Assembly: GCA_036795215.1 (NCBI GenBank)
Contig: DAIRFC010000004.1
Location: forward strand, 4,822 to 68,821
Reading direction: 5' to 3'
DNA: 64,000 nucleotides
Source: Actinomycetota bacterium
GTDB lineage: Bacteria; Actinomycetota; Thermoleophilia; RBG-16-64-13
Made by a program: the position numbers and the translations under genes. Below the pieces are notes generated by a model, which was not told the DNA's origin, made no database searches, and saw only the letters and a program-made list of their open reading frames with translations. Position 1 is the stretch's first letter. Every line of letters begins with the position of its first letter. This document shows, piece by piece, positions 18,696 through 54,323 of the stretch.

Positions 18696-18697
18696 AG

Positions 18698-19092: not shown

Positions 19093-19302
19093 ATGAAGCT
19101 CAGCGCGAGAAACGTTCTGGAGGGGACCATCAAAAGCGTGGATCATGGAGCGGTCAATTCAGAGGTGGTATTGGAGTTGGCCGATGGAGTGCAGGTAGTC
19201 TCCATCATCACCAAGCACTCCGCGGAAGACCTCAAGCTGCAGCCGGGGTCCAAGGCATACGCCGTGATCAAGGCCAGCAACGTGATGATCGCCGTGGACT
19301 GA
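19093..19302 (+). CDS. molybdopterin/molybdate-binding Mop (TOBE) domain protein
   Basis: 69 aa. MKLSARNVLEGTIKSV..AVIKASNVMIAV is the Mop/TOBE signature. AGGAG RBS. Confidence 0.8.
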   Translation: MKLSARNVLEGTIKSVDHGAVNSEVVLELADGVQVVSIITKHSAEDLKLQPGSKAYAVIKASNVMIAVD

Positions 19303-19420
19303 GCAACTGCGGGAGCCGCACGGGCTTCAAACGGACGACCTACGGGACTCCGTGGGCAGGATGGGCTTTCCCGGCCGCGAATGTCAGTCCCAAAGGACCA
19401 CGGGTCGTTTGGAGGTTGAG

Positions 19421-26226: not shown

Positions 26227-27333
26227 ATGAACATCCGGTCCGGCATGAGCATCAGAAGCGTGGCCGCGCGCAGAGTGGGGCCGGTCACGGTCGTGGTCGG
26301 GATAGTCATGGCGCTGATCGTTTGCGCCATGATGCTTCTGGGGGTCTCATCCGCCCAGGCCCTGGTCCCGCTCCTCAACCCTGACGAGCCGAACGACAGT
26401 TTTCCTGCCGCGACGCAGCTCCAGAACGGGTTGGAGATCTGGGGCGCTATCCCCGAGGCAGGCGACGAAGACTTCTTCTATCTGGATATCCCGAGCCGGA
26501 GCCGGGTCACCGTGGAGTTCAACACTCAGGGTGTGCCCAGGGAGTGCGGGCTGGCCTTCATGGCCAAAGGCGGCGATGTGATCGCCGACCTCGCCTGGGA
26601 GAAGCGCTATGACGACGACGGGAGCTTCCTCGCCGACGGGATCGTCGGACCCGGACGGCTCTTCGCTATGGTCTCAGCGGGCAGCGGGCAGGCCGGTGTA
26701 GAGGTCTATACGATCGAAGTGACATACGAAGCCGCGGGAACTACCGCCTCCTTCCCCGATGTGCCGGTAGGATCGCCATACTACGAGGCCGTGATAGGTC
26801 TGGCGGGCGAGGAGGTGGTCTCCGGATACAAGGACGGCCGGTTCGGCCCCAGCGATTTCGTGACCCGCCAGCAGTTCGCCAAGATGATCGTGCGGGCGGT
26901 GGGCTACCCGGTCTTCACCAGCGACGTGTGCCCGTTCACCGATGTCTCCAAGAGCTACCCCGGCCACTACGTGGACCCCAACGATCCTCTCTACCCTGAT
27001 CACTACATCGCCGTCGCAGCCGAGCATCACATCACGGTAGGTTTGGATCCCACCACCACCACGTTTGGACCGTACCGGAACATCACGATGGCTCAGGTCG
27101 TCACCATGGTGGTCCGCACGGGTATCGACCTCGGCCTGTGGGACTCTCCTCCCCACGCGTTCGAGCCCCCGTTCGAGGACTTCGGGGAGCCCCATTACCC
27201 TTACGCGCGCATGGGCGCGGCGCACGGCCTCTTCAACGGCTACCCGGGGCCGTGGGGCTGGTTCGCACCGGCGACCAGAGGCCAATGCGCCTTCTTCATC
27301 TGGAAGCTCATGGGCGCCTACAACGTTGACTGA
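26227..27333 (+). CDS. secreted PPC (pre-peptidase C-terminal)-like domain + SLH domain protein
   Basis: Signal peptide. PPC-like beta-sandwich (..DSFPAATQL..GDEDFFYLDI..RVTVEF). SLH repeats (FPDVPVGSPYYEAV..; CPFTDV..YPDHYIAVAAEHHITVG..). Confidence 0.7.
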   Translation: MNIRSGMSIRSVAARRVGPVTVVVGIVMALIVCAMMLLGVSSAQALVPLLNPDEPNDSFPAATQLQNGLEIWGAIPEAGDEDFFYLDIPSRSRVTVEFNTQGVPRECGLAFMAKGGDVIADLAWEKRYDDDGSFLADGIVGPGRLFAMVSAGSGQAGVEVYTIEVTYEAAGTTASFPDVPVGSPYYEAVIGLAGEEVVSGYKDGRFGPSDFVTRQQFAKMIVRAVGYPVFTSDVCPFTDVSKSYPGHYVDPNDPLYPDHYIAVAAEHHITVGLDPTTTTFGPYRNITMAQVVTMVVRTGIDLGLWDSPPHAFEPPFEDFGEPHYPYARMGAAHGLFNGYPGPWGWFAPATRGQCAFFIWKLMGAYNVD

Positions 27334-39879: not shown

Positions 39880-39912
39880 GATCCGTTATCCGGCCGGCCC
39901 GGCACGGACCTC

Positions 39913-39941
39913 TTGACTTGCCCATCCGCATCATGTATATA
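39913..39941 (+). promoter_or_regulatory. AT-rich sigma-70-like promoter driving a leaderless arsR-hdr operon
   Basis: TTGACT at 39913-39918, 17-nt spacer, TATATA at 39936-39941. The arsR ATG at 39949 is about 7 nt after the -10 element, implying a leaderless transcript. Only strongly AT-rich patch for kilobases. Confidence 0.5.
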
Positions 39942-39948
39942 AGTAATC

Positions 39949-40332
39949 ATGCAAATAAAGGATAAAAGCGCGACCGATGCTCCATCGTCCATGCCGGGCG
40001 ACATGCGCCCGCTGTTCGTGCTTCACGCAGAGATGTGCCAGGCTTTGGCGAACGAGCATCGCGTGGCCATCATCTACGCTCTCAAGGATGGGGAGAAATG
40101 CGTCGGCGAGTTGGCTGCGGAGCTGGGCATATCTGTGCACAACGTGTCGCAGCATCTCCGAGTCCTCCGTCAGCGTTCGTGCGTGCGCGCGCGCAAGGAG
40201 GGACAGACGGTCTACTACTCCATCACCAATCCCAAGTTCATGCAGGCCTGCGCGTTGATCCGCGAGGCCTTACTCGAAGAGCACCGGGCCGAAGAGGAAT
40301 CTCTCCGCGCCGCCGGGCTCGCGGACCTGTAG
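39949..40332 (+). CDS. arsR: ArsR/SmtB-family transcriptional regulator
   Basis: Winged-HTH of the ArsR family (..ALANEHRVAIIYAL..GEKCVGELAAELGISVHNVSQHLRVLR..). Confidence 0.8.
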   Translation: MQIKDKSATDAPSSMPGDMRPLFVLHAEMCQALANEHRVAIIYALKDGEKCVGELAAELGISVHNVSQHLRVLRQRSCVRARKEGQTVYYSITNPKFMQACALIREALLEEHRAEEESLRAAGLADL

Positions 40333-40362
40333 AGAATCACCCATCGAGAGGAAGAAGACAGG

Positions 40363-40638
40363 ATGCATACAGCAGACGGCGGTGGTGGACCGGTGGACCT
40401 CAGTTCGCTACACGGAGACAAGGTGGTGGATGCGAGGGGTACCTCGTGCCCCGGACCTATCCTAGCGGCCAAGAAGGGCATGCCCGAGGTGAAAGTGGGC
40501 GAGATCATGGAAGTGCTGTCCACCGACTTGGGGACGCAGAAAGACCTCCCGGCCTGGGCCAAGAAGATGGGCCATGAGTACCTCGGCTTCGTGGATGATG
40601 CGGGCTACGCGAGGCTGTTCGTCAGACGGTTGAAGTAG
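40363..40638 (+). CDS. tusA: TusA-like sulfurtransferase
   Basis: CPxP active-site motif (GTSCPGP). 91 aa, two-layered alpha/beta TusA fold pattern. GAGAGGAAG RBS. Confidence 0.8.
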   Translation: MHTADGGGGPVDLSSLHGDKVVDARGTSCPGPILAAKKGMPEVKVGEIMEVLSTDLGTQKDLPAWAKKMGHEYLGFVDDAGYARLFVRRLK

Positions 40639-40655
40639 GCGGCGGAGTACTCCAC

Positions 40656-41114
40656 TTGAGCGAGGGCTTCGTTCCGAAGATATTGGTCTTCTCGACCAAC
40701 AACATCTCCGACCCGGGCATAGATCTGGCCGGCAGTTCGCACATGCACTACTCGCCGGGCGTGGTGGTGATCAGCATCCCGTGTACCAGCGGCATCAAGC
40801 CTGAGTGGGTCTTGTATGCCGTGCAGCAAGGTTTTGACGGGGTGTTCGTCGCCGCCGACGGTGAGGAGTGCGCCTACCTGCCCGACTGTAGCGAGCGTAC
40901 GGCGAAGATCATGTCAGACGCGCAGGCGCTGCTCCAAGAGCGAGGTCTCGAGCCCCGGCGGGTGAAGATGGCGGCTGTCTGCTCGGTGTGCGCCGAGCCT
41001 TTCGCCAACTATATGAACGAGTTCTCCAGGGCGCTCACCGACATGGGGCCTTCGGGAGCCGCGGCAGGCGACGCTTCGGGCTCTGCGGGTCTGGACCCTG
41101 GGAGCGCGGCATGA
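40656..41114 (+). CDS. mvhD: MvhD-like (methyl-viologen-reducing hydrogenase delta subunit family) protein, degenerate
   Basis: MvhD family pattern (KILVFSTNNIS..IDLAG..VVVISIPCTSGI..GFDGVFVAA..EEC.YL), but the usual N-terminal CxWC pair is replaced by STNNIS. TTG start. Stop overlaps the next ATG (ATGA). Confidence 0.65.
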   Translation: MSEGFVPKILVFSTNNISDPGIDLAGSSHMHYSPGVVVISIPCTSGIKPEWVLYAVQQGFDGVFVAADGEECAYLPDCSERTAKIMSDAQALLQERGLEPRRVKMAAVCSVCAEPFANYMNEFSRALTDMGPSGAAAGDASGSAGLDPGSAA

Positions 41115-43873
41115 AATACGACGCGCTCGTCGTGGGTGGCGGCATCGGGGGCATGGAGTCGGCCCTCAAGCTTGGCGACATGGGTTACAAGGTCCTCTTG
41201 ATCGAGAGAGAGGCCAGTGTCGGTGGCAAGATGGTGCTTCTCAGCAAGGTGTTCCCCACCCTTGATTGCGCGAGCTGTATCTCTACGCCCAAGATGGGGG
41301 CCACCATCCATCATCCCAACATCACTGTGCTCACGTATGCCGAAGTGGAGAGCATCCGGCGCGGCGAGAGCGGGGATTTCGACGTCCGGGTGAGACAGAA
41401 GTCTCGGTTCGTGGATGAAGCGGCCTGCACAGGGTGCCGTCTATGCGAGGTGGTCTGCAATGTCGCGGTGCCCGATGACTTCGACGGTGGGCTGATCGCC
41501 CGGCGGGCTGCCTACATCCCTTTCCCACAGGCGGTGCCCAAGAAGGCGGTCATCGAGCGGGAGGGGACGTCCCCGTGCACCGCGGCGTGTCCCGCCGGGA
41601 TCAAGCCGCACGGCTACATCGCCCTCATCCGCAGTGGCGAATACGAGAAGGCGTTCCAGCTGGTATGCGAGGCGACTCCCATGGTGGCCAGTCTGGGGCG
41701 GGCCTGCTACGCCCCGTGTGAATCCGAATGCACTCGGGGCCGCCTCGAAGGTCCCGTGCCTATCCGGAGACTGAAGCGTTTCATCGCCGACGTGCACCAC
41801 GCCAAGGAAAGTGAAGCGGTCGAAGCGCCTGCACGCAACGGCAAGAAGGTCGCCATAGTCGGTGCGGGCCCTGCGGGTCTTACGGCTGCCTGGCAGCTCG
41901 CGCGCCGCGGATATCAGGTGAAGGTCTTCGAGGAGGCGGCTCGTCCTGGTGGGATGCTGAGCCTGGCTCTGCCGGCCTTCCGGTTGCCGGACGAGGCCGT
42001 TGACCAGGATGTTTCCAACGTGACGGCTCTGGGAGTGGAGATCGAGACCGGTTCGCGAGTGGACGATCTGGAAGCGCTCGCGCAGGCGGGCTATGACGCG
42101 GTGTTGTTGGCCACGGGCACGCACCGCAGCGCAGAACTGCACATGCCGGGCGAGGAGCTGCCTGGGGTATTGAAGGCCCTGGAGTTTCTGCGGGCGGCTA
42201 GGACGGGACAAGAGATCGATTTGCGTGGCAAGACGGTGGCCGTCGTGGGTGGCGGGAATGTGGCTATCGACGCGGCTCGTGTCGCGTTGCGCTTGGGCGC
42301 CGCCGGCGTGCAGGTGGTCTACCGCCGAACGCGTGACGAGATGCCCGCCAACGCCTGGGAGATAGAGGAAGCCGAGCAAGAGGGAGTGGAGTTCCTCTAC
42401 TTGGCGGCGCCGGTGGCCTGTACGGGCCAAGCCGGCGTCGAGTCGTTGGTCTGTCAGCCGATGGAGCTCGGCGAGCCTGACGAGAGTGGCCGTCGCAAGC
42501 CTATCCCCACCGACTCGGCTCCCCTTGAGGTCAGGGCCGAGAACAATGCGGCCTCTGGTGGGGTGGCCGCCGATCTGCAGGAAGCCCTCGGTGAGCGCCC
42601 AAAGGGGCTCGTGGTCATAGTGGCCGCGGGTCTTCGCCCGGATGCGGACGCCTTTGGGCTGCCGCTGAACAACGATGGCACGATCCAGGTAGACCCCATC
42701 ACCCTGCAGACGAGCATCCCGCACGTTTTCGCAGCGGGCGACGTGGTGGATGGTCCTTCGTCCATCACCGAGGCGGCCGGCAAAGGCCGGCGGGCAGCCT
42801 TAATGATCGACAAGTGGCTCCGGGGCGAGCCTCTGGATGCCGCAGGACTGGACGATGTGCTGCCGGTGGTGGACAAGGACGCGGTGTTGGCCAGGCAGGC
42901 CTCCTACACCGTCATAGAGCCTTGGCCCAACGGTATGGCCTCGTCCGGAGGTCCGCTGGATTTCAGCGAAGTCGAACCGCCCATGACCGAGGAAGAGGCG
43001 CTGCAGGGCGTGAGCCGCTGCCTGGATTGCGGGGTCTGTTCTGAGTGTGGAGCATGTGTGGCCGTGTGTCCGGCCGATTGCATCCATCTCGACATGGCCG
43101 GCTATGAGATGCAGGCCGAGGTCGGGACGGTCATCCTTGCCACGGGCTTCGAGCTCTTTGCTGCCGACGCCAAGCCTCAGTACGGGTATGGGCGCTACAA
43201 GAACGTCATCGGCGGCATGCAGATGGACCGTCTGCTTGCTCCCACCCGGCCCTACAACGCCGTGGTACGCCCCGGCGACGGCAGGATCCCCGACAACATC
43301 GCCTACATCCTCTGCACGGGGTCGCGCGACGATACCGTGGGCAATCCCCTATGCTCCAAGATCTGCTGCATGTATTCCATCAAGCAGAACCAGTTGATCA
43401 TGGGGACTCTGCCGCTGGCCGACGTCACTGTGTACTACATGGATATCCGGTCGGTCGGCAAGGGCTACGACGAGTTCTACGAGCAGGCCAAGGACATGGG
43501 CGCCAACTTCGTGCGGGGGAGGATCTCTGAGATCACTGAGACTCCAGAGGGCAATCTGATCCTTTCATACGAGGACATCGAGAACGGTGGGGGTCTGGTC
43601 CAGACCGAGCACGATCTGGTGGTGCTGGCCGTGGGCGTTCAACCGAGCGCTGAACTCGAGCGTATGTTCCCCGACGGCGGGCCCTCGCTCGACGAGCACT
43701 TCTATGTGGGCGAGGTCAACGAAGACCTCGATCCCGGTCGCACCGACATGCCCGGCGTCTTCGTGGCGGGCGCTGCCGCGGGAGCCAAGGACATCCCCGA
43801 CTCGATACTCCATGCCGGCGCCGCTGTCGCTCAGGCGGCCGCCTACCTCGAGAAAGCGAAGGTGACGGCGTGA
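41111..43873 (+). CDS. hdrA: HdrA-like FAD/Fe-S oxidoreductase with inserted GltD/NfnB-like NAD(P)H-binding module
   Basis: N-terminal HdrA FAD domain (VVGGGIGGMESAL). 4Fe-4S motifs. Central glutamate-synthase-small-subunit-like block (KKVAIVGAGPAGLTAAWQL ... second GGGNVAIDAAR Rossmann). C-terminal HdrA half with the CCMYS motif and ferredoxin domains. Confidence 0.75.
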   Translation: MKYDALVVGGGIGGMESALKLGDMGYKVLLIEREASVGGKMVLLSKVFPTLDCASCISTPKMGATIHHPNITVLTYAEVESIRRGESGDFDVRVRQKSRFVDEAACTGCRLCEVVCNVAVPDDFDGGLIARRAAYIPFPQAVPKKAVIEREGTSPCTAACPAGIKPHGYIALIRSGEYEKAFQLVCEATPMVASLGRACYAPCESECTRGRLEGPVPIRRLKRFIADVHHAKESEAVEAPARNGKKVAIVGAGPAGLTAAWQLARRGYQVKVFEEAARPGGMLSLALPAFRLPDEAVDQDVSNVTALGVEIETGSRVDDLEALAQAGYDAVLLATGTHRSAELHMPGEELPGVLKALEFLRAARTGQEIDLRGKTVAVVGGGNVAIDAARVALRLGAAGVQVVYRRTRDEMPANAWEIEEAEQEGVEFLYLAAPVACTGQAGVESLVCQPMELGEPDESGRRKPIPTDSAPLEVRAENNAASGGVAADLQEALGERPKGLVVIVAAGLRPDADAFGLPLNNDGTIQVDPITLQTSIPHVFAAGDVVDGPSSITEAAGKGRRAALMIDKWLRGEPLDAAGLDDVLPVVDKDAVLARQASYTVIEPWPNGMASSGGPLDFSEVEPPMTEEEALQGVSRCLDCGVCSECGACVAVCPADCIHLDMAGYEMQAEVGTVILATGFELFAADAKPQYGYGRYKNVIGGMQMDRLLAPTRPYNAVVRPGDGRIPDNIAYILCTGSRDDTVGNPLCSKICCMYSIKQNQLIMGTLPLADVTVYYMDIRSVGKGYDEFYEQAKDMGANFVRGRISEITETPEGNLILSYEDIENGGGLVQTEHDLVVLAVGVQPSAELERMFPDGGPSLDEHFYVGEVNEDLDPGRTDMPGVFVAGAAAGAKDIPDSILHAGAAVAQAAAYLEKAKVTA

Positions 43874-45696
43874 GCGGGCGAAGGATCGGTGTCTACGTGT
43901 GCGGCTGCGGCGGCAACATATCCGACTACGTCTCCATTGACGACGTGGTGACGGCCGTCAAAGACGAGCCCGACGTGGTCGTGGCCCGCACCGCCATGTT
44001 CACCTGCTCCGACACGACTCAACAAGAGATCATCCAGGACATCGAGGAGCAACAGCTCGACGGCATAGTGGTCGCTTCGTGCTCGCCGAAGCTGCATACC
44101 TTCACTTTCCGCGAGATGTCAAAACGCGCCGGACTGAATCCTTACGAGTACACGCAGGTGAACATCCGCGAGCAGTGCTCGTGGACCCACACCGACGACA
44201 CGGCGGGCGCCACCGAGAAGGCCGCCCGTTTGGTCCGGGCCGGCATAGCACGCACCCGGCTCACAGAGCCTCTGGAGCCCATCGTCGTGGAGACGGTGCC
44301 CAAAGCGGTGGTCATCGGGGGCGGCATCGCCGGTCTGCGGGCGGCACTGGGGTTGGCCGAGATAGGTATCGCAGTGTTCGTGGTGGAGAAAGAGCCCGAG
44401 CTGGGCGGCTGGGTGGGCGGATTCGGCGAGATGTATCCCCATGGCAAGAACGGCCGCGAGTTAGTGGCCGGGCTTGTGGACCAGGTCCGGGGGCGCTCTG
44501 ACATCACCATCTTCACGGATTCAGAGGTGGTCGGCAAGTCGGGGAGCTTCGGCAACTACGAGGTCGCCATCAGGGTGAACGGTGCTTCTGCCGAGACCCT
44601 CACCGTGCAGGCCGGCTCCATCGTCGTTGCGACGGGATTCGACTCATATGCGCCCGAGCCCGGCGAGTTCGGCTACGGCCTCGAGGGCGTGGTGACGCTG
44701 CCTGAGTTCAAACGTCTGCTGGACGCATCCGAAGGACCTCTGGAATACGCCGGCAGGCCGGTCAGGAGCATTGTGTACATATACTGCGTGGGGAGCCGGC
44801 AGTCCGAGGGCAACGAGTATTGCTCGCGGTACTGCTGCACCGCGGCGGTCCACGCGTCACTGCAGGCGACCGGGCTGGCGACCGGCGTGCAGTCGGCCGG
44901 TGCACCGGGCGCCGGTTCACGTGGCGCCGCCGAACACGGCGCTGCTCCCATACGCCAGTACCACCTCTACCGCGACATGCGCTCCTATGGCAAATATGAG
45001 CTCCTCTACAACGAGTCGCGGCAGAAGGGCGCCATGTATCTGCGCTTCCCCGACGACGAGCCTCCGGTGGTCACCCCGGCGGACGGCACGGCCACTGTCG
45101 CGGAGCAGGAGACCGGATACCGTCTGACGGTCACATCGAAGGATCTGCTCACGGGCGGAGCCGAACTGGCCATCCCCGCCGACCTGGTTGTGCTGGTCAC
45201 CGGTATGGTGCCGCGCGAGAACGGCGATCTGATCGGGACTCTCAAGCTGCCTGTGGGCAACGATGGTTTCTTCAACGAGATCCATCCCAAGTTACGGCCC
45301 GTCGAAACCGTGGTGGACGGCGTGTTCATCTGCGGCGCCTGCCAGAGCCCCAAGAATTCAGCGGAGGCGGTCGCGTCCGGTCTGGCGGCCGTCACGCAGA
45401 GTGCCGCCATCCTCAAGCGTGGATACGCCGAGCTCGACCCGCTCATCGCCGTGGTCGACACCGATGCGTGCGAGTGGTGCGGGCTGTGTTTAGAGGCCTG
45501 TCCGTACGGCGCTCCCCGGGATGCCGAGGAGGACGGCAAGGGGGTGGCCGTCATCGACCGGGCGGCCTGCAAAGGCTGCGGTGGCTGCGTCCCGGTCTGC
45601 CCCAAGAACGCCATAGATCTGCTTGGCTATACCGACGCGCAGATGCGGGCCATGATCGACGGTCTACTCCAGGAGCTGACACCATGCCAGACGTGA
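43870..45696 (+). CDS. hdrA: HdrA/QmoB-like heterodisulfide-reductase subunit A homologue
   Basis: N-terminal Cys-rich domain (IGVYVCGCGGNISDY..). FAD domain VVIGGGIAGLRAAL. C-terminal two 4Fe-4S motifs (CEWCGLCLEACP, CKGCGGCVPVCP). ATGA overlap with the upstream gene. Confidence 0.75.
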   Translation: MSGRRIGVYVCGCGGNISDYVSIDDVVTAVKDEPDVVVARTAMFTCSDTTQQEIIQDIEEQQLDGIVVASCSPKLHTFTFREMSKRAGLNPYEYTQVNIREQCSWTHTDDTAGATEKAARLVRAGIARTRLTEPLEPIVVETVPKAVVIGGGIAGLRAALGLAEIGIAVFVVEKEPELGGWVGGFGEMYPHGKNGRELVAGLVDQVRGRSDITIFTDSEVVGKSGSFGNYEVAIRVNGASAETLTVQAGSIVVATGFDSYAPEPGEFGYGLEGVVTLPEFKRLLDASEGPLEYAGRPVRSIVYIYCVGSRQSEGNEYCSRYCCTAAVHASLQATGLATGVQSAGAPGAGSRGAAEHGAAPIRQYHLYRDMRSYGKYELLYNESRQKGAMYLRFPDDEPPVVTPADGTATVAEQETGYRLTVTSKDLLTGGAELAIPADLVVLVTGMVPRENGDLIGTLKLPVGNDGFFNEIHPKLRPVETVVDGVFICGACQSPKNSAEAVASGLAAVTQSAAILKRGYAELDPLIAVVDTDACEWCGLCLEACPYGAPRDAEEDGKGVAVIDRAACKGCGGCVPVCPKNAIDLLGYTDAQMRAMIDGLLQELTPCQT

Positions 45697-45968
45697 GCCA
45701 GGCCGCCGGCCGGGCCGCGGAGCGTCCCGCCGGCCGGGACCTACGGGAAGTCATCCGCGATGAACATCTCATGCGCCGCCGCATCCTGGAAGTGCTTGGA
45801 GAGGGGCCCCTGACCATCCCCGAGATCGCCGAAGCCCTGGAGAGGCCTTCGCATGAGGTCCTCCTGTGGGTCATGGGAATGCGCAAATACGGTCACGTCG
45901 CCGAGATCAAAGAAGCCACCGACGAGGGCTTCTACCAGTACCAGGCCGTGAAGAGGGAGGAGGCATGA
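45684..45968 (+). CDS. small winged-helix-like protein (hyp between hdrA and hdrC)
   Basis: 94 aa. ..RRRILEVLGEGPLTIPEIAEALERPSHEVLLWVMGMRKYGHV.. resembles a wHTH. Overlaps both neighbours. GGAG RBS. Confidence 0.5.
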   Translation: MPDVSQAAGRAAERPAGRDLREVIRDEHLMRRRILEVLGEGPLTIPEIAEALERPSHEVLLWVMGMRKYGHVAEIKEATDEGFYQYQAVKREEA

Positions 45969-46288
45969 ACGCTCCAGCAGACGGCGTCATCCTCGTCAGG
46001 CCGGGACTTGCGGCCGAGGTGGGGACGCACGACGAGTTCGATGCCTCTGCCTGCATGAACTGTGGAGTCTGCACCGCCGTGTGCCCCATGGGTATCGAGA
46101 TATTGCCTCGCAGGCTGTTCCGCTATGTGCTCTTGGGCATGGAGGAGCAGGTGTTCGACGAGACCGAGAGCATCTACTCGTGCCTCCTCTGCAAGATGTG
46201 TGAGGTCAACTGCCCCGTGGGCGTGCATATCGCCGAGAACGTGCGGGCGCTGCGCCATCACATCAATCGCAAGGTCTTCGGGCTTTAG
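45965..46288 (+). CDS. hdrC: HdrC-like 4Fe-4S subunit
   Basis: Two ferredoxin-type motifs (CMNCGVCTAVCP, CLLCKMCEVNCP) in about 107 aa. ATGA overlap with the upstream gene. Confidence 0.7.
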   Translation: MNAPADGVILVRPGLAAEVGTHDEFDASACMNCGVCTAVCPMGIEILPRRLFRYVLLGMEEQVFDETESIYSCLLCKMCEVNCPVGVHIAENVRALRHHINRKVFGL

Positions 46289-46298
46289 GAGACAGGCC

Positions 46299-47309
46299 AT
46301 GTCTTTACCAACAGGCGACGTCATCGGCATCCTGGCGGACAATCTCCGTCTGCGTAGGTCGGTGTTGCCTATATCGGGCCGCAATGCCACTCGCTGGGCC
46401 CGCGGGCTCGATCTGAAGAGCGGTGGCGAGACCGTCCTCTACACGGGCATGATGTACCAGCTCATCCCCTATATCGAAGGCCTCGTGAACGCCGTGTCGA
46501 GGTTAGGCGACTCGCCCCTGGCCCGATTCACCCCTCTTGGCCGCAGGATCAACCGGCTGGTGAACATCAGTGCCTTCATGGTCCGGCCGCCTGCCCGAGT
46601 GAAGGCGGAATACGATCAGGTCCCCAGGGATGTGGCCCGGCTGCTGCAACAGGCCGGCGTGGAGTTCGGCTATCTCTACAAAGACGATCTGTACTCGGGG
46701 GCGCTCGCCTACGATCTGGGCGCCGATGAGGTCGTGACCGAGCATGCGCGCAGAGTCCATGAGGTGCTCAAGAGACGCGGCGTCAAGACGCTCATCACCA
46801 TAGACCCACATACCACCAACATGATGCGCTCGGTGTATCCCAGACTGATCCCCGAATACGACATCCAGGTTAAAAGCTATCTGGAAGTCCTTGTCGAGAG
46901 GGGATTCGGGGCCGCGGACGGGGCCGCGGGGCAGGCGGTCACCGCGGGGCAGGCGGTCGCGACTGGCAAGAAGCTCGCAGGCGAGGTCGTCATCCACGAC
47001 CCGTGCGTCTTCGCCCGTTACGAGGGCATCTTGGACGAACCACGAGTGCTTCTTGCCGCTACCGGGCTGATGGTCAGAGAGCCGGAAAAGTCAGGCAAGA
47101 TGACCTGGTGTTGCGGCGGACCGGTCGAAGCGCTCTACCCCGAGAAGGCCCGAGCCAACGCCGAGAAACGGGCGGGGCAGCTCACAAACGTGTGCAGCGA
47201 CGTGGTCACCATGTGTCCCATGTGTTTCGTCAACCTGAGCACGGCCGCTCCTGAGGGCGTCGCCTTTCACGATATCTCCCACTACTTGGCCCGCGCGTTC
47301 GTATCCTGA
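46299..47309 (+). CDS. hdrB: HdrB/HdrD-like CCG-domain subunit
   Basis: Two cysteine-rich CCG domains, including KMTWCCGGP and C-terminal CPMCFVN. GGAGA RBS. Confidence 0.7.
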   Translation: MSLPTGDVIGILADNLRLRRSVLPISGRNATRWARGLDLKSGGETVLYTGMMYQLIPYIEGLVNAVSRLGDSPLARFTPLGRRINRLVNISAFMVRPPARVKAEYDQVPRDVARLLQQAGVEFGYLYKDDLYSGALAYDLGADEVVTEHARRVHEVLKRRGVKTLITIDPHTTNMMRSVYPRLIPEYDIQVKSYLEVLVERGFGAADGAAGQAVTAGQAVATGKKLAGEVVIHDPCVFARYEGILDEPRVLLAATGLMVREPEKSGKMTWCCGGPVEALYPEKARANAEKRAGQLTNVCSDVVTMCPMCFVNLSTAAPEGVAFHDISHYLARAFVS

Positions 47310-47334
47310 TCCGCGTTTTCAGAGGAGAAGCAGA

Positions 47335-47814
47335 GTGGACACCACCAAGAAGACCATCATCGTATTCAGCGGCGATCTGGACAAAGCCATGGCTGCTTTC
47401 ATCATCGCCAACGGCTCGGCGGCGATGGGCGACCAGGTCACTATGTTCTTCACCTTCTGGGGGCTCAGCGTGATCCGGAAGCCCAGCAAGGTCAAGACCG
47501 CGGGCAAGACCTTTCTACAGACCATGTTCGGCAAGATGATGCCTCGCGGTACGGCAAGGCTGGGTCTCTCCAAGATGAACTTCGCCGGCATGGGCGCTCC
47601 CCTCATGAAGAAGGCCATGAAGGCCAAGAATGTCATGACTTTGGATGAGCTCATAGCCAGCGCGCGTGAGGAAGGGGTGAGGCTCGTGGCATGCACCATG
47701 TCCATGGACGTGCTCGGTTTCACCAAAGAAGAGCTACTGGACGACATCGAGTACGGGGGCGTCGGCTCCTACCTAGGCCACGCCGACGAGGCGAACGTCA
47801 ACCTCTTCATCTAG
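47335..47814 (+). CDS. dsrE: DsrE/DsrF (YchN-like) family sulfur-relay protein
   Basis: DsrE-fold pattern (IIVFSGDLDKAMAAFIIANGSAAMG..VTMFFTFWGL..VACTMSMDV). GTG start with AGGAG RBS. Last gene of the operon. Confidence 0.7.
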   Translation: MDTTKKTIIVFSGDLDKAMAAFIIANGSAAMGDQVTMFFTFWGLSVIRKPSKVKTAGKTFLQTMFGKMMPRGTARLGLSKMNFAGMGAPLMKKAMKAKNVMTLDELIASAREEGVRLVACTMSMDVLGFTKEELLDDIEYGGVGSYLGHADEANVNLFI

Positions 47815-48326
47815 GGGTTGTCGGCTCGCGCTTTCGCGGCGGCTTTCGCGGCGTGGTCGGCCAACCTCTGCATGGCCGAGGCTCTGGCCGCGAGAGATGC
47901 GGCCGCCATTTCCAGCGCCTCGATACCCGCCTGCGTGATCACGTAGACCCGTCGGCTGGGACCCGCCTCGGGGGTCTGCCATGTGGAGCTGACCAATCCC
48001 TGCTCTTCGAGTTCGCGGAGCAGACGATACATGCTCCCCGGGTCGATGCACACCAGGTCTGAGGCAAGCCCGCCTATCTGCTCGACCAGGTCATACCCAT
48101 GGGTCGTCGTCTCTGCCAGCGAGGCCAGTATGGAGGTCTCGAGCACGGCGCGCCGGTAACGGCCTCCACCGGCGCCACCACCCGGTCCGCCGCCCGCAGC
48201 GCGTCTCGTGCCCCCGAAGAAGCCCGGACCTGTGTCTGGACCTGTGCCGGCTCCCCCGGCCTGTCCCGCTGCCGCTCCGGCGCCTCTTCGGCCTCTGCCC
48301 TGGGGATTCCCGCTGCTCTTACCCAT
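47811..48326 (-). CDS. PadR-family transcriptional regulator with Gly/Arg-rich N-terminal extension
   Basis: PadR wHTH (..ILASLAETTTHGYDLVEQIG..MYRLLRELEEQGLV..RVYVITQAG). About 60-aa G/R-rich low-complexity N-terminus. Its stop shares the CTAG tetranucleotide with the dsrE stop. Confidence 0.7.
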   Translation of the reverse strand: MGKSSGNPQGRGRRGAGAAAGQAGGAGTGPDTGPGFFGGTRRAAGGGPGGGAGGGRYRRAVLETSILASLAETTTHGYDLVEQIGGLASDLVCIDPGSMYRLLRELEEQGLVSSTWQTPEAGPSRRVYVITQAGIEALEMAAASLAARASAMQRLADHAAKAAAKARADNP

Positions 48327-48714
48327 GGTCGCTCTCGACCTCGTCTCTCGTCACTCGCCCCAGCATGAAGTCATCGATCGCCTTGTGGAGGGCGGTCGCG
48401 GCGTGATTGGAGCAGTGCTGTTTTGGCTCAGGCAGACCACCGAGAGCGACCATGATGTCAATGTCGTCGAGCATAGAGGCCTCCTCCATCGTCATGCCGG
48501 TCGCCAGCTCGCTCATCATGCTGCAGGTGGCGATGGCAGCCGGGCAGCCGAACACCTTGTACTTCACCTCCGCCAGCAGATCGCCTTCAACTCGGATCCA
48601 GACCTTGAAGTAGTCTCCGCATTCGGGGTCGCCCACTGTTCCCACGCCGTCGGGGTTCTCGATCTCCCCGACGTTGCGTGGGTTCAGGAAGTGCTCGACG
48701 CTCAGTGGTCGCAC
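48319..48714 (-). CDS. IscU/NifU-N-like Fe-S cluster scaffold protein
   Basis: ..HFLNPRNVGEIENPDGVGTVGDPECGDYFKV..GCPAAIATCSMMSEL.. is the ISCU signature with its three Cys. Start uncertain (GTG 48714 proposed). Confidence 0.65.
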   Translation of the reverse strand: MRPLSVEHFLNPRNVGEIENPDGVGTVGDPECGDYFKVWIRVEGDLLAEVKYKVFGCPAAIATCSMMSELATGMTMEEASMLDDIDIMVALGGLPEPKQHCSNHAATALHKAIDDFMLGRVTRDEVESDHG

Positions 48715-49985
48715 ACGTTGTCCCCGGTCACAAGCGTCCCACTCAGGTACTGCCGCACCACCGCCTCGGGCTCTGCCGAGGGAGCTCCGATGATGACGCT
48801 GACTCCTTGTTCTGTGAACAACTGCTGAGCCCGTGAACCCATGCCACCGGCGATGATGAAACCGGCTCCCTTGTCGGCCAACCATGCGGGCAGCAGACCG
48901 GGCTCGTGTTCCGGGGCCGGGATGGTGGTCTTGTTCAGGATCTGCTTCGACTGTGGGTCGACGTCCACAAGCGTGAATTCTTGGCAGTGGCCGAAGTGGG
49001 CGCACAGGACGCCGTCACTCGTGGGCACGGCGAACCGCTGCACGGCGTCGATGTCCGCGGCCGGAGACGCTCCTGCGGCCGCCGCTGCGGAGCAAGACGC
49101 CGTCGCTGCGGGGCAGGATGCCGCTCCGGGGCAGGATGCCGCCACCGCGTCGTCGGCGGGCTCGTCCTCGAGTGCGAGGATGAACGGCAAGGCCTTCGCG
49201 AACTCCTGAGCCGCCGGGCTCTTGGAGTAGTGGTATATGTACGGACGGCCGGAGTCACCCGCTTCAACGATCGCGGGGTCGAGGGGGACGCTGGCCAACA
49301 GCGGCACTCCGGCCTTGGCTGCCATATCGGCGCCGCCGCCCTTGCTGAAGACGTTCGTCACCTCACCGCACTTCGGGCAGACGAACCCGGCCATGTTCTC
49401 GATCACGCCCAGCACCCTGAGGTCCAGAAGGGAACAGAAACTGATGGACCGTCGGACATTGTTGAGGGCCGTCTGCTGCGGGGTGGTCACGATGATCGCG
49501 CCGGCCATCTTGCCGATGGCCTGGCAGACCGCCAGTGGCTCGTCGCCCGTGCCGGGCGGCGAGTCGATGATCAGGTAGTCGAGTTCGCCCCATTCGACCT
49601 CGCCCAGGAACTGCTCGATAGCGACCGCCTTCATAGGGCCGCGCCACACGACGGCGGCGTCCTCTTCGCCGAGCAGAAAGGCGATGGACATCACCTTGAG
49701 GTTCTCGCCCACTTCCACGGGATGAAGCGTCTCTCCTTCGATCGTGACGGGCGAGCCGTTCAGGCCGAGCAGTTGGGGGACCGTGGGCCCGTGTAGATCG
49801 ACATCGAGAAGACCCACGCGCTTGCCCTCGAGGGCAAGCGAGGTGGCCAGATTGACCGAGACGGTGCTCTTGCCAACACCGCCCTTGCCCGATAGGACTA
49901 TGATCTTATGCTTGATCTGGCTCATCTTCTCCCGCACCGCGGGCGCCCGATCGTTGCCTTGCTGTGATTGGTGCGCGCAATCCAT
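48702..49985 (-). CDS. Mrp/NBP35 (ApbC) P-loop ATPase fused to C-terminal NifX/NifB-like cofactor-binding domain
   Basis: Deviant Walker A SGKGGVGKST and CPxC-like CPKC motif of Mrp/NBP35. Ala/Ser/Cys-rich linker. C-terminal domain ..VLCAHFGHCQEFTLVDVD..GFIIAGGMGSRAQQLF.. of the dinitrogenase FeMo-cofactor-binding (NifX/NafY) family. Start chosen at ATG 49985 (AGAGG RBS); alternatives are GTG 50030 and ATG 49925. Confidence 0.75.
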   Translation of the reverse strand: MDCAHQSQQGNDRAPAVREKMSQIKHKIIVLSGKGGVGKSTVSVNLATSLALEGKRVGLLDVDLHGPTVPQLLGLNGSPVTIEGETLHPVEVGENLKVMSIAFLLGEEDAAVVWRGPMKAVAIEQFLGEVEWGELDYLIIDSPPGTGDEPLAVCQAIGKMAGAIIVTTPQQTALNNVRRSISFCSLLDLRVLGVIENMAGFVCPKCGEVTNVFSKGGGADMAAKAGVPLLASVPLDPAIVEAGDSGRPYIYHYSKSPAAQEFAKALPFILALEDEPADDAVAASCPGAASCPAATASCSAAAAAGASPAADIDAVQRFAVPTSDGVLCAHFGHCQEFTLVDVDPQSKQILNKTTIPAPEHEPGLLPAWLADKGAGFIIAGGMGSRAQQLFTEQGVSVIIGAPSAEPEAVVRQYLSGTLVTGDNVCDH

Positions 49986-50237
49986 GCTTATGCCTCTGCT
50001 TTCTTTAACATCTCGTCGAGTCTTTGCCACATGTCTCGTATCTGATCGGCGGCCTGACTGCCGCCGTACTCCACAGGAGCTCGTGTGCGGCGCACAGGTA
50101 CAGAGCCACCCGGGCCGTCAACGAGCGCGAGGTCGAGCCCCGATCACGGGGGCCAGAGCCGAAGCCTCGTTCCTCATCGGAGTGACGAGTTTACCCGAGT
50201 TCTCGCTGCCGATGTACACGCCTCGCACCTACGACCC

Positions 50238-50480
50238 TCATAGTCCCTCGAGCTCTCTGATTCGCTGCTCGATAGTCTCCAGCACCGACTTCAACCGTTC
50301 GGATTCGCTCTTGAGAAGGGCGACCTCCTCGTCGGGTCCAAGGATGTTGTCGGGTCCCGGCGGTTCATGTGTGGCCGGTGCCCCTTCGGCGACGCAGATA
50401 CGGTCACAGCAGCCGTAGCCGCCCCCCGTCTTGCACCCACACTTGGCACCGAGTGGGCCGGTCACATCTCCTTTGGGCAT
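50238..50480 (-). CDS. DUF5320 family protein
   Basis: MPKGDVTGPLG..CGC..GGGYGCC N-terminus and a C-terminal coiled coil (LKSESERLKSVLETIEQRIRELEGL), as in DUF5320. ATG 50480 with GGAG RBS. Confidence 0.7.
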   Translation of the reverse strand: MPKGDVTGPLGAKCGCKTGGGYGCCDRICVAEGAPATHEPPGPDNILGPDEEVALLKSESERLKSVLETIEQRIRELEGL

Positions 50481-50540
50481 CTTGAGTCTCCTTGATACAC
50501 GCCGGTGCGTCGACGGCCGGCACCGCATATGAGCCACGGT

Positions 50541-50900
50541 CTACCAGTGGCCGTCCACGTCGGCGGCCGGGGCCTGCTCGAGACTTCCCGCCTCGAATCG
50601 GTCGATCGCTTCCGCAACGGTTCCCGCCGGGGCCAGATAGACTTCGACGCCGGCGGCGTTGAGCGCCCTGAAGGCCTTCGGGCCGCAGTGCCCGGTAAGA
50701 AGCACGGTGGCTTCGTTGTCGATGACTCTCTGGGCTGCCTGGATCCCCGCACCCTGTTCGGCGTTCATGCCGGCCAGGTTGTCAACAGGGAGTACGGTCC
50801 GCTCCGGGAGGTCCACCACGAGCAGGTAGTGCGCCCGCCCGAAGCGCTGATCCACAGCGCTCGAAAGATCAGGGCCTGCCGATGTCACGGCTATTCTCAC
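50541..50900 (-). CDS. NifX/NifB-like dinitrogenase FeMo-cofactor-binding family protein (stand-alone)
   Basis: MRIAV.S.G..L.S.VD.RFGRA.Y.L.VD.. and ..VLLTGHCGPKAFRAL..AGVEVY.. pattern. GTG start with AGAGGAG RBS. Confidence 0.7.
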   Translation of the reverse strand: MRIAVTSAGPDLSSAVDQRFGRAHYLLVVDLPERTVLPVDNLAGMNAEQGAGIQAAQRVIDNEATVLLTGHCGPKAFRALNAAGVEVYLAPAGTVAEAIDRFEAGSLEQAPAADVDGHW

Positions 50901-50917
50901 GTCGTTCTCCTCTCTTC

Positions 50918-51481
50918 TCAGGGTGCACGGTAACGGCCGCGCGTCCCACTTCGATCACTCCGTCCACGGCCGCCGCCCGCGCCACCGCCGCCTCCGCACC
51001 CCGGACCCTGGCCGCCTCGCGGGCCTTGTCCCTTCCCTTGGCCTCTTCCTCCTCCACGACCTTGTCCAGCTCCGCGACCTGGACCTCTACCAAGGCCGGA
51101 TGCCGCAGAGCCGTCGCGGCTATCGGTCGGCGGCGTATCAGGTGCGAAGCTTCGTTTGACGTCAAGGGCGAATCCCACCAGACTCAGGAGCCCTGAAAAG
51201 AATCTCTGGGCGGGTGTGATAGAGCTCTGGGCGGGCGCGACAAGGGGAGGTGCAACGTCGGGGATGATGGCCGGCAGTCCGGCCTTCTCCGTGCGAACGG
51301 GAAGCTCGTCAGGCTCCATGATGATAGCGCTCGTGAGACACGCATCCACGCATCGTCCACACGAGGTACAGAGGTTTTCGTCGATGAAGGCGGTGTCACC
51401 GCGCATGGTGATCGCCTCGCGGTTGCAGCTGTCTATGCAGACCCCGCAGCCTGTACAGAGGTTCTCGTCGACGTACACCAT
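50918..51481 (-). CDS. 2x[4Fe-4S] ferredoxin with about 60-aa Gly/Arg-rich C-terminal tail
   Basis: CTGCGVCIDSCNREA and CTSCGRCVDACLTSA motifs. Tail GRGPGRGAGQGRGGGRGQGKGQGPRGGQGPGCGGGGGAGGGRGRS. ATG 51481 with GAGG RBS. Confidence 0.7.
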   Translation of the reverse strand: MVYVDENLCTGCGVCIDSCNREAITMRGDTAFIDENLCTSCGRCVDACLTSAIIMEPDELPVRTEKAGLPAIIPDVAPPLVAPAQSSITPAQRFFSGLLSLVGFALDVKRSFAPDTPPTDSRDGSAASGLGRGPGRGAGQGRGGGRGQGKGQGPRGGQGPGCGGGGGAGGGRGRSDRSGTRGRYRAP

Positions 51482-51540
51482 GTCAGCCTCACATCTATAT
51501 GCAGTTAGCATCTATATGAAAACATCATCAGTTCCCAACG

Positions 51541-52512
51541 TCAAGGGGCCGGCTTATCCGTGGAGCCGGTAGGCGCATAGAAAGTGCGGCCTGCCAGCGT
51601 CTCCGGGCTGATCTGCTTCTCCGCGAGGAGGATGTCCAGGCGCTTCAAGACATCCAGCACGTGCAGGCCAAGCCCGGCCGCGATATCGTCGGCCGTGCAC
51701 GGACGCCTGGCCAGTAGGGCAAGGATGCCGGCATCGTCGGTCGCTCCGGCGGCGTGGTGTTCCGACCTGCTCTTGGTGAAGTCGCAGATGACCTCGACAT
51801 CACGCGAGAACAGGCCTGCGAGGGCGTGCATGCGCTCTTCCGGCAATGCGTGCACGAAGCCCTCGACCGGAGGGCGGCTGGCCGTGTTCAGCTGGACCCG
51901 GGTCGGAGCGATCTGCTCAACCAGCTGCGCGATTTTCTCGACCTGCGAGGGCGTGTCGGTCAAACCTGCCAACAGCATGACTTCCAGCCACACTTGCCCG
52001 TCGAAGCGCCCGGTGAAGGCGGCGAGCCCGTCGACCATGAGATCGAAGGAGATCGACGGGTCGGGACGGTTGACCTGCTCGAACATCTCCGCGTCACCAG
52101 CGTCGAGCGACGGGAGTACCAAGTCTGCCTCCGAGAGCTCTTCCTGTACTTCTTCCATCCACAACAGCGAACCGTTGGTGATCATCGCCACAGGAATGTC
52201 GGTCATCCCTTTGATGAGCCGGATGAGCCGGCCGATCCCGGAATGCAGCGTGGGCTCGCCCGACCCGGCAAGGCTTATGTAGTCGGGAGTGTCTCCCGCC
52301 GCCAGATGGCGCGCGATCCCGGCCTGCACCGCGTCGACAGGGACGTATTCGCGTCGCTCGGTCGTCTTGTTGGTCGTACGCCCAAGCTGGCAGTAGACGC
52401 AATCGTAGGTGCACGTCTTATAGGGTACGAGGTCTACGCCCAGTGACCGGCCCAGCCGCCTTGACGGGACCGGTCCGTAGATGTAGTCGTCGACGTGTTG
52501 TGTCGTGCTCAC
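51541..52512 (-). CDS. radical SAM protein (subfamily not assignable)
   Basis: CxxxCxxC motif CTYDCVYC preceded by YGPVPSRRLGRSLGVDL. GTG 52512 (GGGAGAGG RBS) overlaps the TAG stop of the upstream CoADR gene by 1 nt. Confidence 0.7.
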   Translation of the reverse strand: MSTTQHVDDYIYGPVPSRRLGRSLGVDLVPYKTCTYDCVYCQLGRTTNKTTERREYVPVDAVQAGIARHLAAGDTPDYISLAGSGEPTLHSGIGRLIRLIKGMTDIPVAMITNGSLLWMEEVQEELSEADLVLPSLDAGDAEMFEQVNRPDPSISFDLMVDGLAAFTGRFDGQVWLEVMLLAGLTDTPSQVEKIAQLVEQIAPTRVQLNTASRPPVEGFVHALPEERMHALAGLFSRDVEVICDFTKSRSEHHAAGATDDAGILALLARRPCTADDIAAGLGLHVLDVLKRLDILLAEKQISPETLAGRTFYAPTGSTDKPAP

Positions 52513-54209: not shown

Positions 54210-54323
54210 GTGAGGTCCTTTCGTCATGGAAATTCATTACAGCCGGTACCCCGTTTTGCGCAAATGTACTACTATCTAGATGCAGTTACCAGTTAGATTA
54301 TCTCCGCACCTATGGAGGCTCCT

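Follow-up and report, generated by a model that had tools for sequence, protein, structure and literature searches.

Complexes built on HdrA, the flavoprotein of heterodisulfide reductase (Hdr), are the main models for flavin-based electron bifurcation. Their high-potential acceptor is known only for the complexes that use the heterodisulfide of coenzymes M and B (CoM-S-S-CoB) and for a few others; for many bacterial HdrABC, HdrL and Flx versions it is still guessed, usually as DsrC. Here we analyse an operon of this kind, arsR-tusA-mvhD-hdrL-hdrA'-hyp-hdrC'-hdrB'-dsrE2, within a 64,000-nucleotide stretch of DNA (the window) from an Actinomycetota bacterium of the Thermoleophilia (contig DAIRFC010000004.1, assembly GCA_036795215.1). 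It is a widespread, self-contained variant of the named HdrL/HdrABC family, encoded with its own predicted sulfur carriers, and may reduce the sulfane sulfur that they bind.

The closest described systems are the HdrL clusters. HdrL was defined as an HdrA fused to a module resembling the small, NADH-binding subunit of glutamate synthase, encoded beside mvhD, and was inferred to be an entry point for NAD(P)H (Strittmatter 2009, PMC2702500). Locus VIII of Desulfobacterium autotrophicum holds tandem hdrL/hdrA with hdrC and hdrB. In Syntrophobacter fumaroxidans the 'HdrABC/HdrL' complex (Sfum_0819-0824) is known from proteomics, where it was detected only when sulfate was available and was suggested to reduce DsrC (Sedano-Nunez 2018, PMC5947623). 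For both HdrL/MvhD and HdrABC/HdrL, the proposed role in sulfur metabolism is that of an NAD(P)H-linked complex that bifurcates or confurcates electrons (PMC2702500, PMC5947623). A related concept is FlxABCD-HdrABC of Desulfovibrio, described (as cited in PMC10504309 and PMC5947623) as an NADH-linked, possibly bifurcating HdrABC with an MvhD-like FlxD and DsrC as its substrate. Finally, the Hdr-like systems of sulfur oxidation (sHdr) are encoded as shdrC1B1AHC2B2-lbpA (type I) or shdrC1B1AHB3-etfAB-emo (type II); the type II sHdrB3, found in Actinomycetota, Chloroflexota and Bacillota, carries one non-cubane cluster (PMC11094781).

The window cluster fits the published definition of HdrL, with an HdrA-NfnB-like fusion, an adjacent mvhD, and hdrA, hdrB and hdrC alongside, all of which it has in common with D. 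autotrophicum HdrL/MvhD and Sfum_0819-0824. Its core architecture is already known from comparative genomics and proteomics. An earlier reading of the locus, made from the sequence alone, had pointed out the HdrA-GltD fusion as a difference from sHdr clusters. This fusion beside mvhD is not new: it already has the names HdrL (PMC2702500) and HdrABC/HdrL (PMC5947623), and D. autotrophicum locus VIII shows tandem hdrL/hdrA. That sequence-only reading was largely reasonable as a whole and overstated novelty. Set against the published descriptions of HdrL/MvhD and HdrABC/HdrL, the present cluster differs in that tusA is always present, dsrE2-type and winged-helix genes are usual, HdrB' shows one CCG motif, the cysteine set of MvhD is new, and there is neither selenocysteine nor an extra iron-sulfur protein like Sfum_0822. 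In the searchable literature we found no paper linking TusA or DsrE2 to HdrL/MvhD clusters, and no description of a tusA that is always present, a dsrE2 that usually is, the gene for the winged-helix protein, an HdrB' with one cluster, the altered cysteine set of MvhD or the complementary split of HdrA domains, an earlier description of any of these being possible.

Results

A conserved gene order that includes sulfur carriers

Coordinates are positions in the window, genes follow a listing of open reading frames (ORFs) with re-derived start codons (Table 1), a precomputed Pfam annotation spans the whole window, and labels such as L003 or L010 denote related loci. The nine genes are closely packed on the plus strand, with intergenic distances from arsR to dsrE2 of 30, 17, -4, -4, -13, -4, 10 and 25 nt. 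The ORF listing agrees on this with independent gene calls: four public contigs carrying an identical locus have the same genes, except for a shorter arsR of 113 aa. The domain content assigned by eye was likewise borne out when the ORFs were searched against Pfam and NCBIfam.

A scan with HdrB' peptides against one genome per species identified 80 loci, in Thermoleophilia, Gaiellales and other Actinomycetota, Acidimicrobiales, Limnocylindrales and other Chloroflexota, Zixibacteria, Verrucomicrobiota, Bacteroidales, Nitrospirales and two archaea. The same 80 loci include cultured Desulfotomaculia, namely Desulfotruncus arcticus, D. alcoholivorax, Desulfallas sp., Desulfotomaculum copahuensis and Desulfoscipio geothermicus. 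Synteny was counted by tblastn of the nine proteins in the 61 loci with at least 7 kb of upstream sequence. The core tusA-mvhD-hdrL-hdrA'-hyp-hdrC'-hdrB', with the NfnB insert in hdrL, was found in the same order in 58-59 of these, across at least six phyla, and tusA lies immediately upstream of mvhD in 59. A DsrE-family gene is in or beside the cluster in about 50 of 56 loci (49 scored, plus L062, which has the gene and was missed through a scoring artefact). In Thermoleophilia and Bacillota it follows hdrB'; in Acidimicrobiales, Zixibacteria and others it precedes tusA, and a second tusA often accompanies it. The linkage of an Hdr-like complex to TusA and a DsrE-family carrier, first noticed in the window, is thereby found to be tight and widespread. 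The order is indeed common and belongs to a named family, as had been allowed for; a characterised complex it is not.

Pfam-annotated contexts from Desulfallas and a Zixibacterium confirmed the operon boundaries. Genes on the flanks of the window operon (nitroreductase, flavin reductase, Fer4 proteins, a PadR-NifU-Mrp-radical SAM set and a CoA-disulfide reductase (CoADR)-rhodanese fusion) were considered as parts of the module and rejected, because they are shared only with the nearest relatives. Since the core is conserved and the flanks are not, the cluster acts like a module of its own, in which a sulfur carrier is always present.

The occurrence of the cluster in sulfate-reducing Desulfotomaculia (L035, L037, L038, L039, L045) raises the question of whether the true substrate is DsrC, as a trisulfide or disulfide. 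TusA and DsrE2 would then only feed or service DsrC, and the complex would link NAD(P)H (and ferredoxin) to dissimilatory sulfite reduction. This role has been proposed for Flx-Hdr and for HdrABC/HdrL, whose expression is sulfate-dependent (PMC5947623), and TusA-to-DsrE-to-DsrC relays are established in sulfur oxidisers (PMC11094781). Against it, the Pfam annotation of the window contains no dsrAB or dsrC. Hydrogenase, etf, emo, apr, selenium-utilisation and lactate genes are likewise absent from this annotation. Only one of the 80 loci gave a DsrC-like match by tblastn: in the Gaiellales metagenome-assembled genome L008, a DsrC/TusE-like ORF at 2426-2743 (+) beside the cluster has 33% identity to what we take to be the Desulfovibrio vulgaris DsrC sequence. 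This ORF, on the upstream side of the cluster, has as neighbours a further DsrE-like gene and another arsR. Most of the host taxa (Thermoleophilia, Acidimicrobiales, Limnocylindrales) are, judged by taxon, not known as sulfite reducers. We consider DsrC unlikely to be the true substrate.

HdrL and HdrA' divide the domains of HdrA

HdrL has an HdrA flavoprotein core (residues 1-151 and 639-920) around an NfnB/GltD-type module (residues 152-638; nt 41564-43024), and matched the Pfam families Pyr_redox_2 (159.8 bits) and Fer4_20 (60.7 bits). Residues 4-151 align with positions 145-291 of HdrA from M. thermolithotrophicus and span the start of the flavin adenine dinucleotide (FAD)-binding domain, the FPTxDCxxC motif and the first CxxCxxCxxxC motif of the inserted ferredoxin domain. 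Positions 289-570 find their counterpart in residues 639-918, which contain the second ferredoxin motif and the remaining flavin domain, including CX12CX3CC. From this pattern it follows that the NAD(P)H module has been spliced into the inserted ferredoxin domain of HdrA, between its two cluster motifs. The 487-residue insert is a full-length NfnB/GltD homologue with two [4Fe-4S] motifs, an FAD site and an NAD(P)H site (E 1.7e-74 to T. maritima NfnB, 4ylf_B; 1.4e-71 to P. furiosus NfnI, 5jca_L), confirming that an NAD(P)H-FAD module is built into this Hdr-like complex. NfnAB and SudAB share these sites; they differ in that here the module is internal to HdrA and the cluster has no NfnA-like gene. 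FlxABCD-HdrABC shares the general concept, in which NADH is linked to an HdrABC that has an MvhD-like subunit and whose S-S substrate is bound to a protein. It differs in that here flxA, flxB and flxC are absent and HdrA itself contains the NAD(P)H module. HdrL lacks the N-terminal cluster domain and the C-terminal ferredoxin domain of HdrA; its cysteine motifs are invariant in 57-58 of 58 orthologues.

HdrA' aligns with the same methanogen protein at residues 4-235 (positions 4-235) and 242-602 (positions 315-652; E 7.6e-110), and Pfam recognised Pyr_redox_2 and a Fer4 dicluster. Its domains are an N-terminal cluster domain, an FAD domain and a C-terminal 2x[4Fe-4S] ferredoxin domain. The protein had been described as a second full HdrA, a description that fails because the inserted ferredoxin domain and the FPTxDCxxC motif are missing. 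Conserved cysteines are C11, C13, C46, C71, C306, C318, C322, C323 and those at 534-577, and the cluster cysteines of HdrL and HdrA' are all conserved across 57-64 orthologues. HdrA' retains exactly the two domains that HdrL lacks, and on the strength of these complementary domain sets we infer a heterodimer. The alignments suggest that HdrL:HdrA' would take the place of the HdrA2 homodimer, in the manner assumed for QmoA/QmoB. QmoABC likewise has two different HdrA paralogues thought to cooperate; the window cluster differs from it in being soluble (HdrC'/HdrB' rather than QmoC), in having an NfnB module and in not lying beside aprAB.

HdrA' and HdrL matched the HdrA of the bifurcating methanogen complex (5odc_A) at E ~1e-106 to 1e-110, and sHdrA (6tjr_A) much more weakly, at 1e-23 to 3e-38. 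With the NCBIfam HdrA2 model they scored 456 and 446 bits against an equivalog cut-off of 1100.

In some Thermoleophilia metagenome-assembled genomes (L010 at ~12366-19330 (-), L013 and L079) a paralogous cluster lies a few kilobases from the main one. Its order is arsR-tusA-mvhD-hdrA-hdrA-hyp, the first hdrA being HdrL-like without the NfnB insert. Next comes a 358-aa QmoC/HdrE-like protein that combines several transmembrane helices with an HdrC-like CxxCxxCxxxCP motif, and after it two DsrE-like ORFs. The encoded complex resembles a membrane- or quinone-linked sibling of the NAD(P)H-linked one.

A remodelled MvhD-like subunit and a one-cluster HdrB'

The MvhD-like protein matched PF02662 (FlpD) with 106.2 bits and aligned end to end with 5odc_D (E 1.3e-13). 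It has STNNI in place of CCNWC and AD in place of GC, so that four of the six canonical cysteines are gone. The loss of the CxWC pair was thus correctly seen, but the protein is not degenerate, because five cysteines remain unchanged in 61-62 of 62 orthologues: the canonical C43 and C72 and the new C78, C109 and C112. The simplest reading is that it carries a cluster with a re-wired ligand set.

HdrC' matched Fer4_8 (45.9 bits) and Fer4_17 (46.2 bits) and scored 49 bits with TIGR03290, far under the cut-off of 160. Its two CxxCxxCxxxC motifs provide eight cysteines, all invariant in 72 of 72 orthologues. HdrB' keeps the two-lobed HdrB fold with a single cluster site. Two CCG motifs had been expected; only the C-terminal one is present, and Pfam found one CCG domain (44.5 bits). 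This motif, C236-x34-CC(271/272)-x33-C306-x2-C309 (nt 47004-47225), is invariant in 74-75 of 75 orthologues. Residues 1-235 are free of cysteine in the window protein, no column in this region is dominated by cysteine across the 75 orthologues, and the N-terminal lobe has YTG and DPHTT at the CCG and CPxC positions. DsrK offers a proposed precedent for the action of a CCG site with one cluster on sulfur held by a protein.

The methanogen MvhAGD-HdrABC complex (5ODC) resembles the window cluster in its HdrA-type FAD core with CX12CX3CC, two-[4Fe-4S] HdrC, MvhD-family subunit and HdrB fold. In contrast to 5ODC, the HdrA domains are here split over two proteins, NAD(P)H would replace hydrogenase as the donor, HdrB' has one non-cubane cluster instead of two, and the canonical MvhD cysteine set is lost; the host is a bacterium without the CoM/CoB pathway, and the window holds no MvhAG hydrogenase genes. 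A methanogen CoM/CoB Hdr was rejected, as the equivalog cut-offs were missed, only one CCG motif is present and the MvhD cysteines are lost. The sequence-only reading had also argued against a CoM-type enzyme, and the split HdrA and the absence of hydrogenase from the window agree with it.

The local order of HdrA, a small protein, HdrC and HdrB, in association with TusA and DsrE-family transferases, is also that of sHdr. The hdrA-hyp-hdrC-hdrB segment resembles shdrA-H-C2-B2, and type II sHdrB3, which occurs in the same phyla, binds one non-cubane cluster as HdrB' is predicted to do (PMC11094781). These likenesses could mean that the complex runs in the oxidative direction, with the sulfane sulfur of the carrier oxidised towards sulfite and electrons passed to NAD(P)+ through the NfnB-like module, but we give this little chance. 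No GcvH/LbpA (PF01597) was found in the window, either in the Pfam annotation or by tblastn with GcvH (E<0.01), and the same tblastn search gave no match within ~10 kb in the 80 related loci. There is a single HdrC/B pair, no two-cluster sHdrB1-type subunit, and no etfAB or emo. HdrC' and HdrB' are separate genes, whereas sHdrB3 is a fusion. The HdrA proteins are of the large methanogen type (608 and 920 aa, bearing ferredoxin domains) rather than the ~340-aa sHdrA type, and they are accompanied by MvhD and the NfnB module. The hosts include strict anaerobes, and no oxygen-atom-donating chemistry is evident. Membership of sHdr was therefore rejected on the lack of lbpA, the single HdrC/B pair and the large HdrA proteins, and the distinction from sHdr drawn earlier stands.

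The sole GCV_H-type domain seen near any of these clusters is in a Zixibacteria contig (L089, JAYEIF010000074.1), where positions 1-620 (-) encode a 441-aa protein with Fer2, Fer4 and lipoyl-carrier-like GCV_H domains. It lies ~4 kb upstream of the cluster, with a two-component regulator pair in between.

Sulfur carriers and a winged-helix protein

TusA matched PF01206 with 72.1 bits (cut-off 28.6) and did not reach the E. coli TusA equivalog (40 against 78). Its Cys29 lies in an SCPGP (CPxP-type) motif and is invariant in 61 of 61 orthologues. The DsrE2-like protein matched DrsE_2 (PF13686) with 213.8 bits and scored 99.1 bits with the DsrE2 model NF047629, under its cut-off of 210. It aligned over its full length with 3pnx_A (E 4.2e-34), and with 2qs7 (8.5e-17), which has been named DsrE2B (PMC11094781); it is best described as a DsrE2B-like soluble form. 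Its single cysteine, Cys120, is invariant in 60 of 60 orthologues and aligned with the cysteines of 3pnx and 2qs7. The active cysteines on which a carrier function depends are thus present in both proteins.

The small protein encoded between hdrA' and hdrC', hyp, occupies this place in 58 of 61 loci. It is free of cysteine and has the conserved signature RDxRE..RDE...GPxTVPEIA...EVMxWVMGMRKYG. Its AlphaFold2 (AF2) model is a minimal winged helix (H-H-H-E-E, pLDDT 85), with sub-threshold Pfam matches to HTH_20 and TrmB. Structure matches were generic only (MarR, ArsR and Z-alpha folds; best E 1.3e-3), and neither a profile search of the PDB nor Foldseek found a specific relative. The family comprises at least 2403 clusters (90% identity) at E<=1e-3 and has the NCBI label 'MarR family'. 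As modelled, hyp may be either a subunit of the complex or a second regulator, and in loci without arsR it could be the only regulator.

A CCG subunit need not act on sulfur-sulfur bonds. HdrB' might instead be an electron hub, as in EtfD/EMO or LutA, or the cluster might have a selenium role, with TusA resembling YedF and the NfnB module resembling YgfK. NCBIfam gave sub-threshold matches to YedF, to Se_ygfK (E 1.3e-97) and, for HdrL and HdrB', to 'diclust_near_Sec', all far under the curated cut-offs. The window is without selenium-utilisation, etf or lactate genes. Moreover, the strict co-occurrence with TusA and DsrE, each with an invariant active cysteine, favours sulfur-carrier chemistry, and a role of this kind appears to us to have very little chance.

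A conserved promoter and a probably leaderless arsR

Upstream of arsR, a -35 element TTGACT (39913-39918), a spacer of 17 nt, a -10 element TATATA (39936-39941) and a further 7 nt lead to the ATG at 39949; the conserved block is GTATATAAGnAAnnATGCAAATA. When the upstream regions of arsR were aligned, TTGAC-N17/18-TATATA-N7-ATGCAA was found in all 30 related loci that contain the gene. Conservation is nearly complete at positions -14 to -6 and 0 to +7, in contrast to the DNA around them and the codons that follow, which have diverged. A consensus sigma-70 scanner did not pick up this promoter, because the -10 hexamer ends in A and the scanner requires T at position 6. Automatic calls on the public contigs start arsR at 39991; tblastn alignments of the orthologues begin at residue 1 of the longer form, and the conservation of both the promoter and residues 1-14 points to the start at 39949. 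The arsR mRNA is probably leaderless from this position, with strong comparative support, and the leaderless message proposed from the sequence is well sustained. The window has two direct copies of ATCATGyAwATAA (39930-39942 and 39946-39958), and the conserved box over the promoter probably doubles as the ArsR operator. A 13-nt inverted repeat that brackets the promoter (39897-39909, GCCCGGCACGGAC; 39987-39999, GTCCATGCCGGGC; 92% complementary, 77 nt between the arms) was dropped; it is not conserved in the related loci and is probably fortuitous.

ArsR matched PF01022 (HTH_5) with 51.8 bits (cut-off 22) and NF033788 with 87.9 (cut-off 55). Orthologues retain three of its cysteines, C30, C51 and C101 (27-30 of 30). 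The sensing pairs of the persulfide sensors, which we take to be C41/C107 in SqrR, C42/C108 in BigR and C30/C96 in HlyU, map to about Y43 and L109 of ArsR, as judged from the alignment ranges to 3jth, 3pqj and 6o8l, and the BigR equivalog score is 49.9 against a cut-off of 155. A SqrR/BigR-type persulfide sensor is thus unsupported, since the pair is absent though three other cysteines are conserved, and persulfide-responsive control, as suggested earlier, is unproven.

These results bear on a defensive role, in which a cysteine-containing ArsR would govern reactive-sulfur homeostasis by reductive removal of persulfide or polysulfide, without bifurcation, in anaerobes unable to use oxygen-dependent persulfide dioxygenases. 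TusA and DsrE modules are typical of persulfide-stress operons, an ArsR with three conserved cysteines is the first gene in Thermoleophilia-type loci, and a CoADR-rhodanese gene is nearby. However, arsR is present in only 31 of 61 loci, the known sensing pair is missing, three flavins and more than ten iron-sulfur clusters would be lavish for detoxification, and HdrA-type flavoproteins of this clade are typically bifurcating. We find this role quite unlikely.

Genomic surroundings

Downstream of the operon lies a convergent operon (47811-52575, -) in the order PadR, NifU_N, Mrp/ParA (fused to Nitro_FeMo-Co), DUF5320, Nitro_FeMo-Co, Fer4 and radical SAM; it may be an iron-sulfur or cofactor maturation set. 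The stop codons of PadR and dsrE2 overlap by 4 nt, which leaves no space for a terminator, and the sigma-70 and terminator scan found nothing useful inside the operon. At 52512-54227 (-), 4.7 kb downstream of the operon, is a 565-aa fusion of Pyr_redox_2, Pyr_redox_dim and Rhodanese, a CoADR/rhodanese that resembles NADH-dependent persulfide reductases and is kept only in the closest relatives (L003, L006, L075, L078). Several SLH-domain proteins are encoded in the window (e.g. 26227-27333), indicating that the host is a monoderm with an S-layer, and the first 20 kb contain toxin-antitoxin pairs (PIN/FitA-like, MazE/Fic). An Rfam scan of the window found only three tRNAs, all outside the operon.

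Table 1. Features of the operon and tRNA genes in the 64-kb window
Feature	Position	Strand	Description
promoter and candidate operator	39913-39958	+	read from sequence; same arrangement in 30/30 arsR-bearing loci
arsR	39949-40332	+	ArsR/SmtB-family repressor, 127 aa
tusA	40363-40638	+	TusA-family sulfur carrier, 91 aa
mvhD-like	40656-41114	+	MvhD/FlpD-like subunit, 152 aa; TTG start
hdrL	41111-43873	+	HdrL, 920 aa; HdrA with NfnB/GltD-type module
hdrA'	43870-45696	+	HdrA', 608 aa; GTG start
hyp	45684-45968	+	small winged-helix protein, 94 aa
hdrC'	45965-46288	+	HdrC-like ferredoxin, 107 aa
hdrB'	46299-47309	+	HdrB-like, predicted catalytic subunit, 336 aa
dsrE2-like	47335-47814	+	DsrE2-type (PF13686) predicted soluble sulfurtransferase, 159 aa
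tRNA-Ser (CGA)	4031-4119	-
tRNA-Arg (ACG)	18697-18771	-
tRNA-Ser (GCT)	18808-18899	-

Discussion

We propose that the operon encodes a soluble cytoplasmic HdrL-type redox complex together with its own substrate carriers and a repressor, and that this complex would catalyse the NAD(P)H-dependent, possibly bifurcating, reduction of carrier-bound sulfane sulfur. We regard this as an evenly balanced call. NAD(P)H would be oxidised at the NfnB-like flavin of HdrL, and from there electrons would reach the HdrA-type flavins of the HdrL:HdrA' dimer by way of the clusters in the ferredoxin domains. One branch would then run through HdrC' to the single non-cubane cluster of HdrB', which would reductively cleave the sulfane sulfur (a cysteine persulfide, polysulfide or mixed bridge) on TusA and/or DsrE2, releasing H2S and regenerating the carrier thiol. 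Along the other branch ferredoxin may be reduced, either by way of the C-terminal ferredoxin domain in HdrA' or by way of the MvhD-like subunit; this domain and the remodelled subunit are likely to form the ferredoxin port. With such a port the reaction may be flavin-based bifurcation, in which NAD(P)H reduces a high-potential S-S acceptor and ferredoxin together. ArsR would repress the operon from the conserved box overlapping the leaderless promoter.

Several lines of evidence favour sulfane-sulfur reduction on the carriers. The domain content, the complementary HdrA domains with their insertion point, the full-length NfnB-like module and the HdrB fold with one invariant CCG motif speak for the proposed complex. 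The invariant C29 of TusA and C120 of DsrE2, and a conserved core that includes a sulfur carrier, are consistent with carrier-bound sulfur as the substrate. HdrA' and HdrL are far closer to the bifurcating methanogen HdrA than to sHdrA. A CoADR/rhodanese fusion lies downstream in the window and in close relatives. By analogy, the inferred entry of NAD(P)H at HdrL (PMC2702500) and the detection of HdrABC/HdrL with sulfate only (PMC5947623) would fit as well.

Other observations weigh against this proposal. The best fold match of HdrB' is EtfD, and its single CCG cluster is unlike every characterised heterodisulfide-cleaving HdrB. The DsrE gene is missing in six loci (L003, L006, L040, L055, L072, L076), of which L072 and L076 are divergent and also lack the core. 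Finally, the YRR motif in the HdrL module of the window, which is suggestive of NADPH, is not conserved across orthologues.

A broader claim can be built on the same proposal, namely that these loci represent an unrecognised, widespread class of NAD(P)H-dependent bifurcating TusA/DsrE2-persulfide reductase, based on HdrL:HdrA' and a one-cluster HdrB, with a role in energy metabolism and a quinone-linked sibling. This is possible, though we lean against it. If it were true, Dsr-independent anaerobes (Thermoleophilia, Acidimicrobiia, Chloroflexota, Zixibacteria), as well as Desulfotomaculia, would gain energy in the form of reduced ferredoxin from zero-valent sulfur, and the QmoC-like version would be the quinone-linked, membrane-coupled equivalent.

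Because nearly every genome with the cluster encodes sulfur carriers as part of it, it offers a concrete, testable candidate for the substrate of an HdrL complex, a persulfide on TusA or DsrE2. Cultured Desulfotomaculia carry it, which makes experiments possible. Should the complex prove to do no more than reduce DsrC or detoxify, it would be a useful yet ordinary member of the Hdr-like family. If a TusA or DsrE2 persulfide is the substrate, the HdrL family would gain a function, and cleavage of S-S bonds by an HdrB with one cluster, which has been proposed for DsrK, would have been demonstrated. A cytoplasmic step that reduces sulfur and generates reduced ferredoxin would then be added to the metabolism of Actinomycetota that are abundant in soil, peat and digesters.

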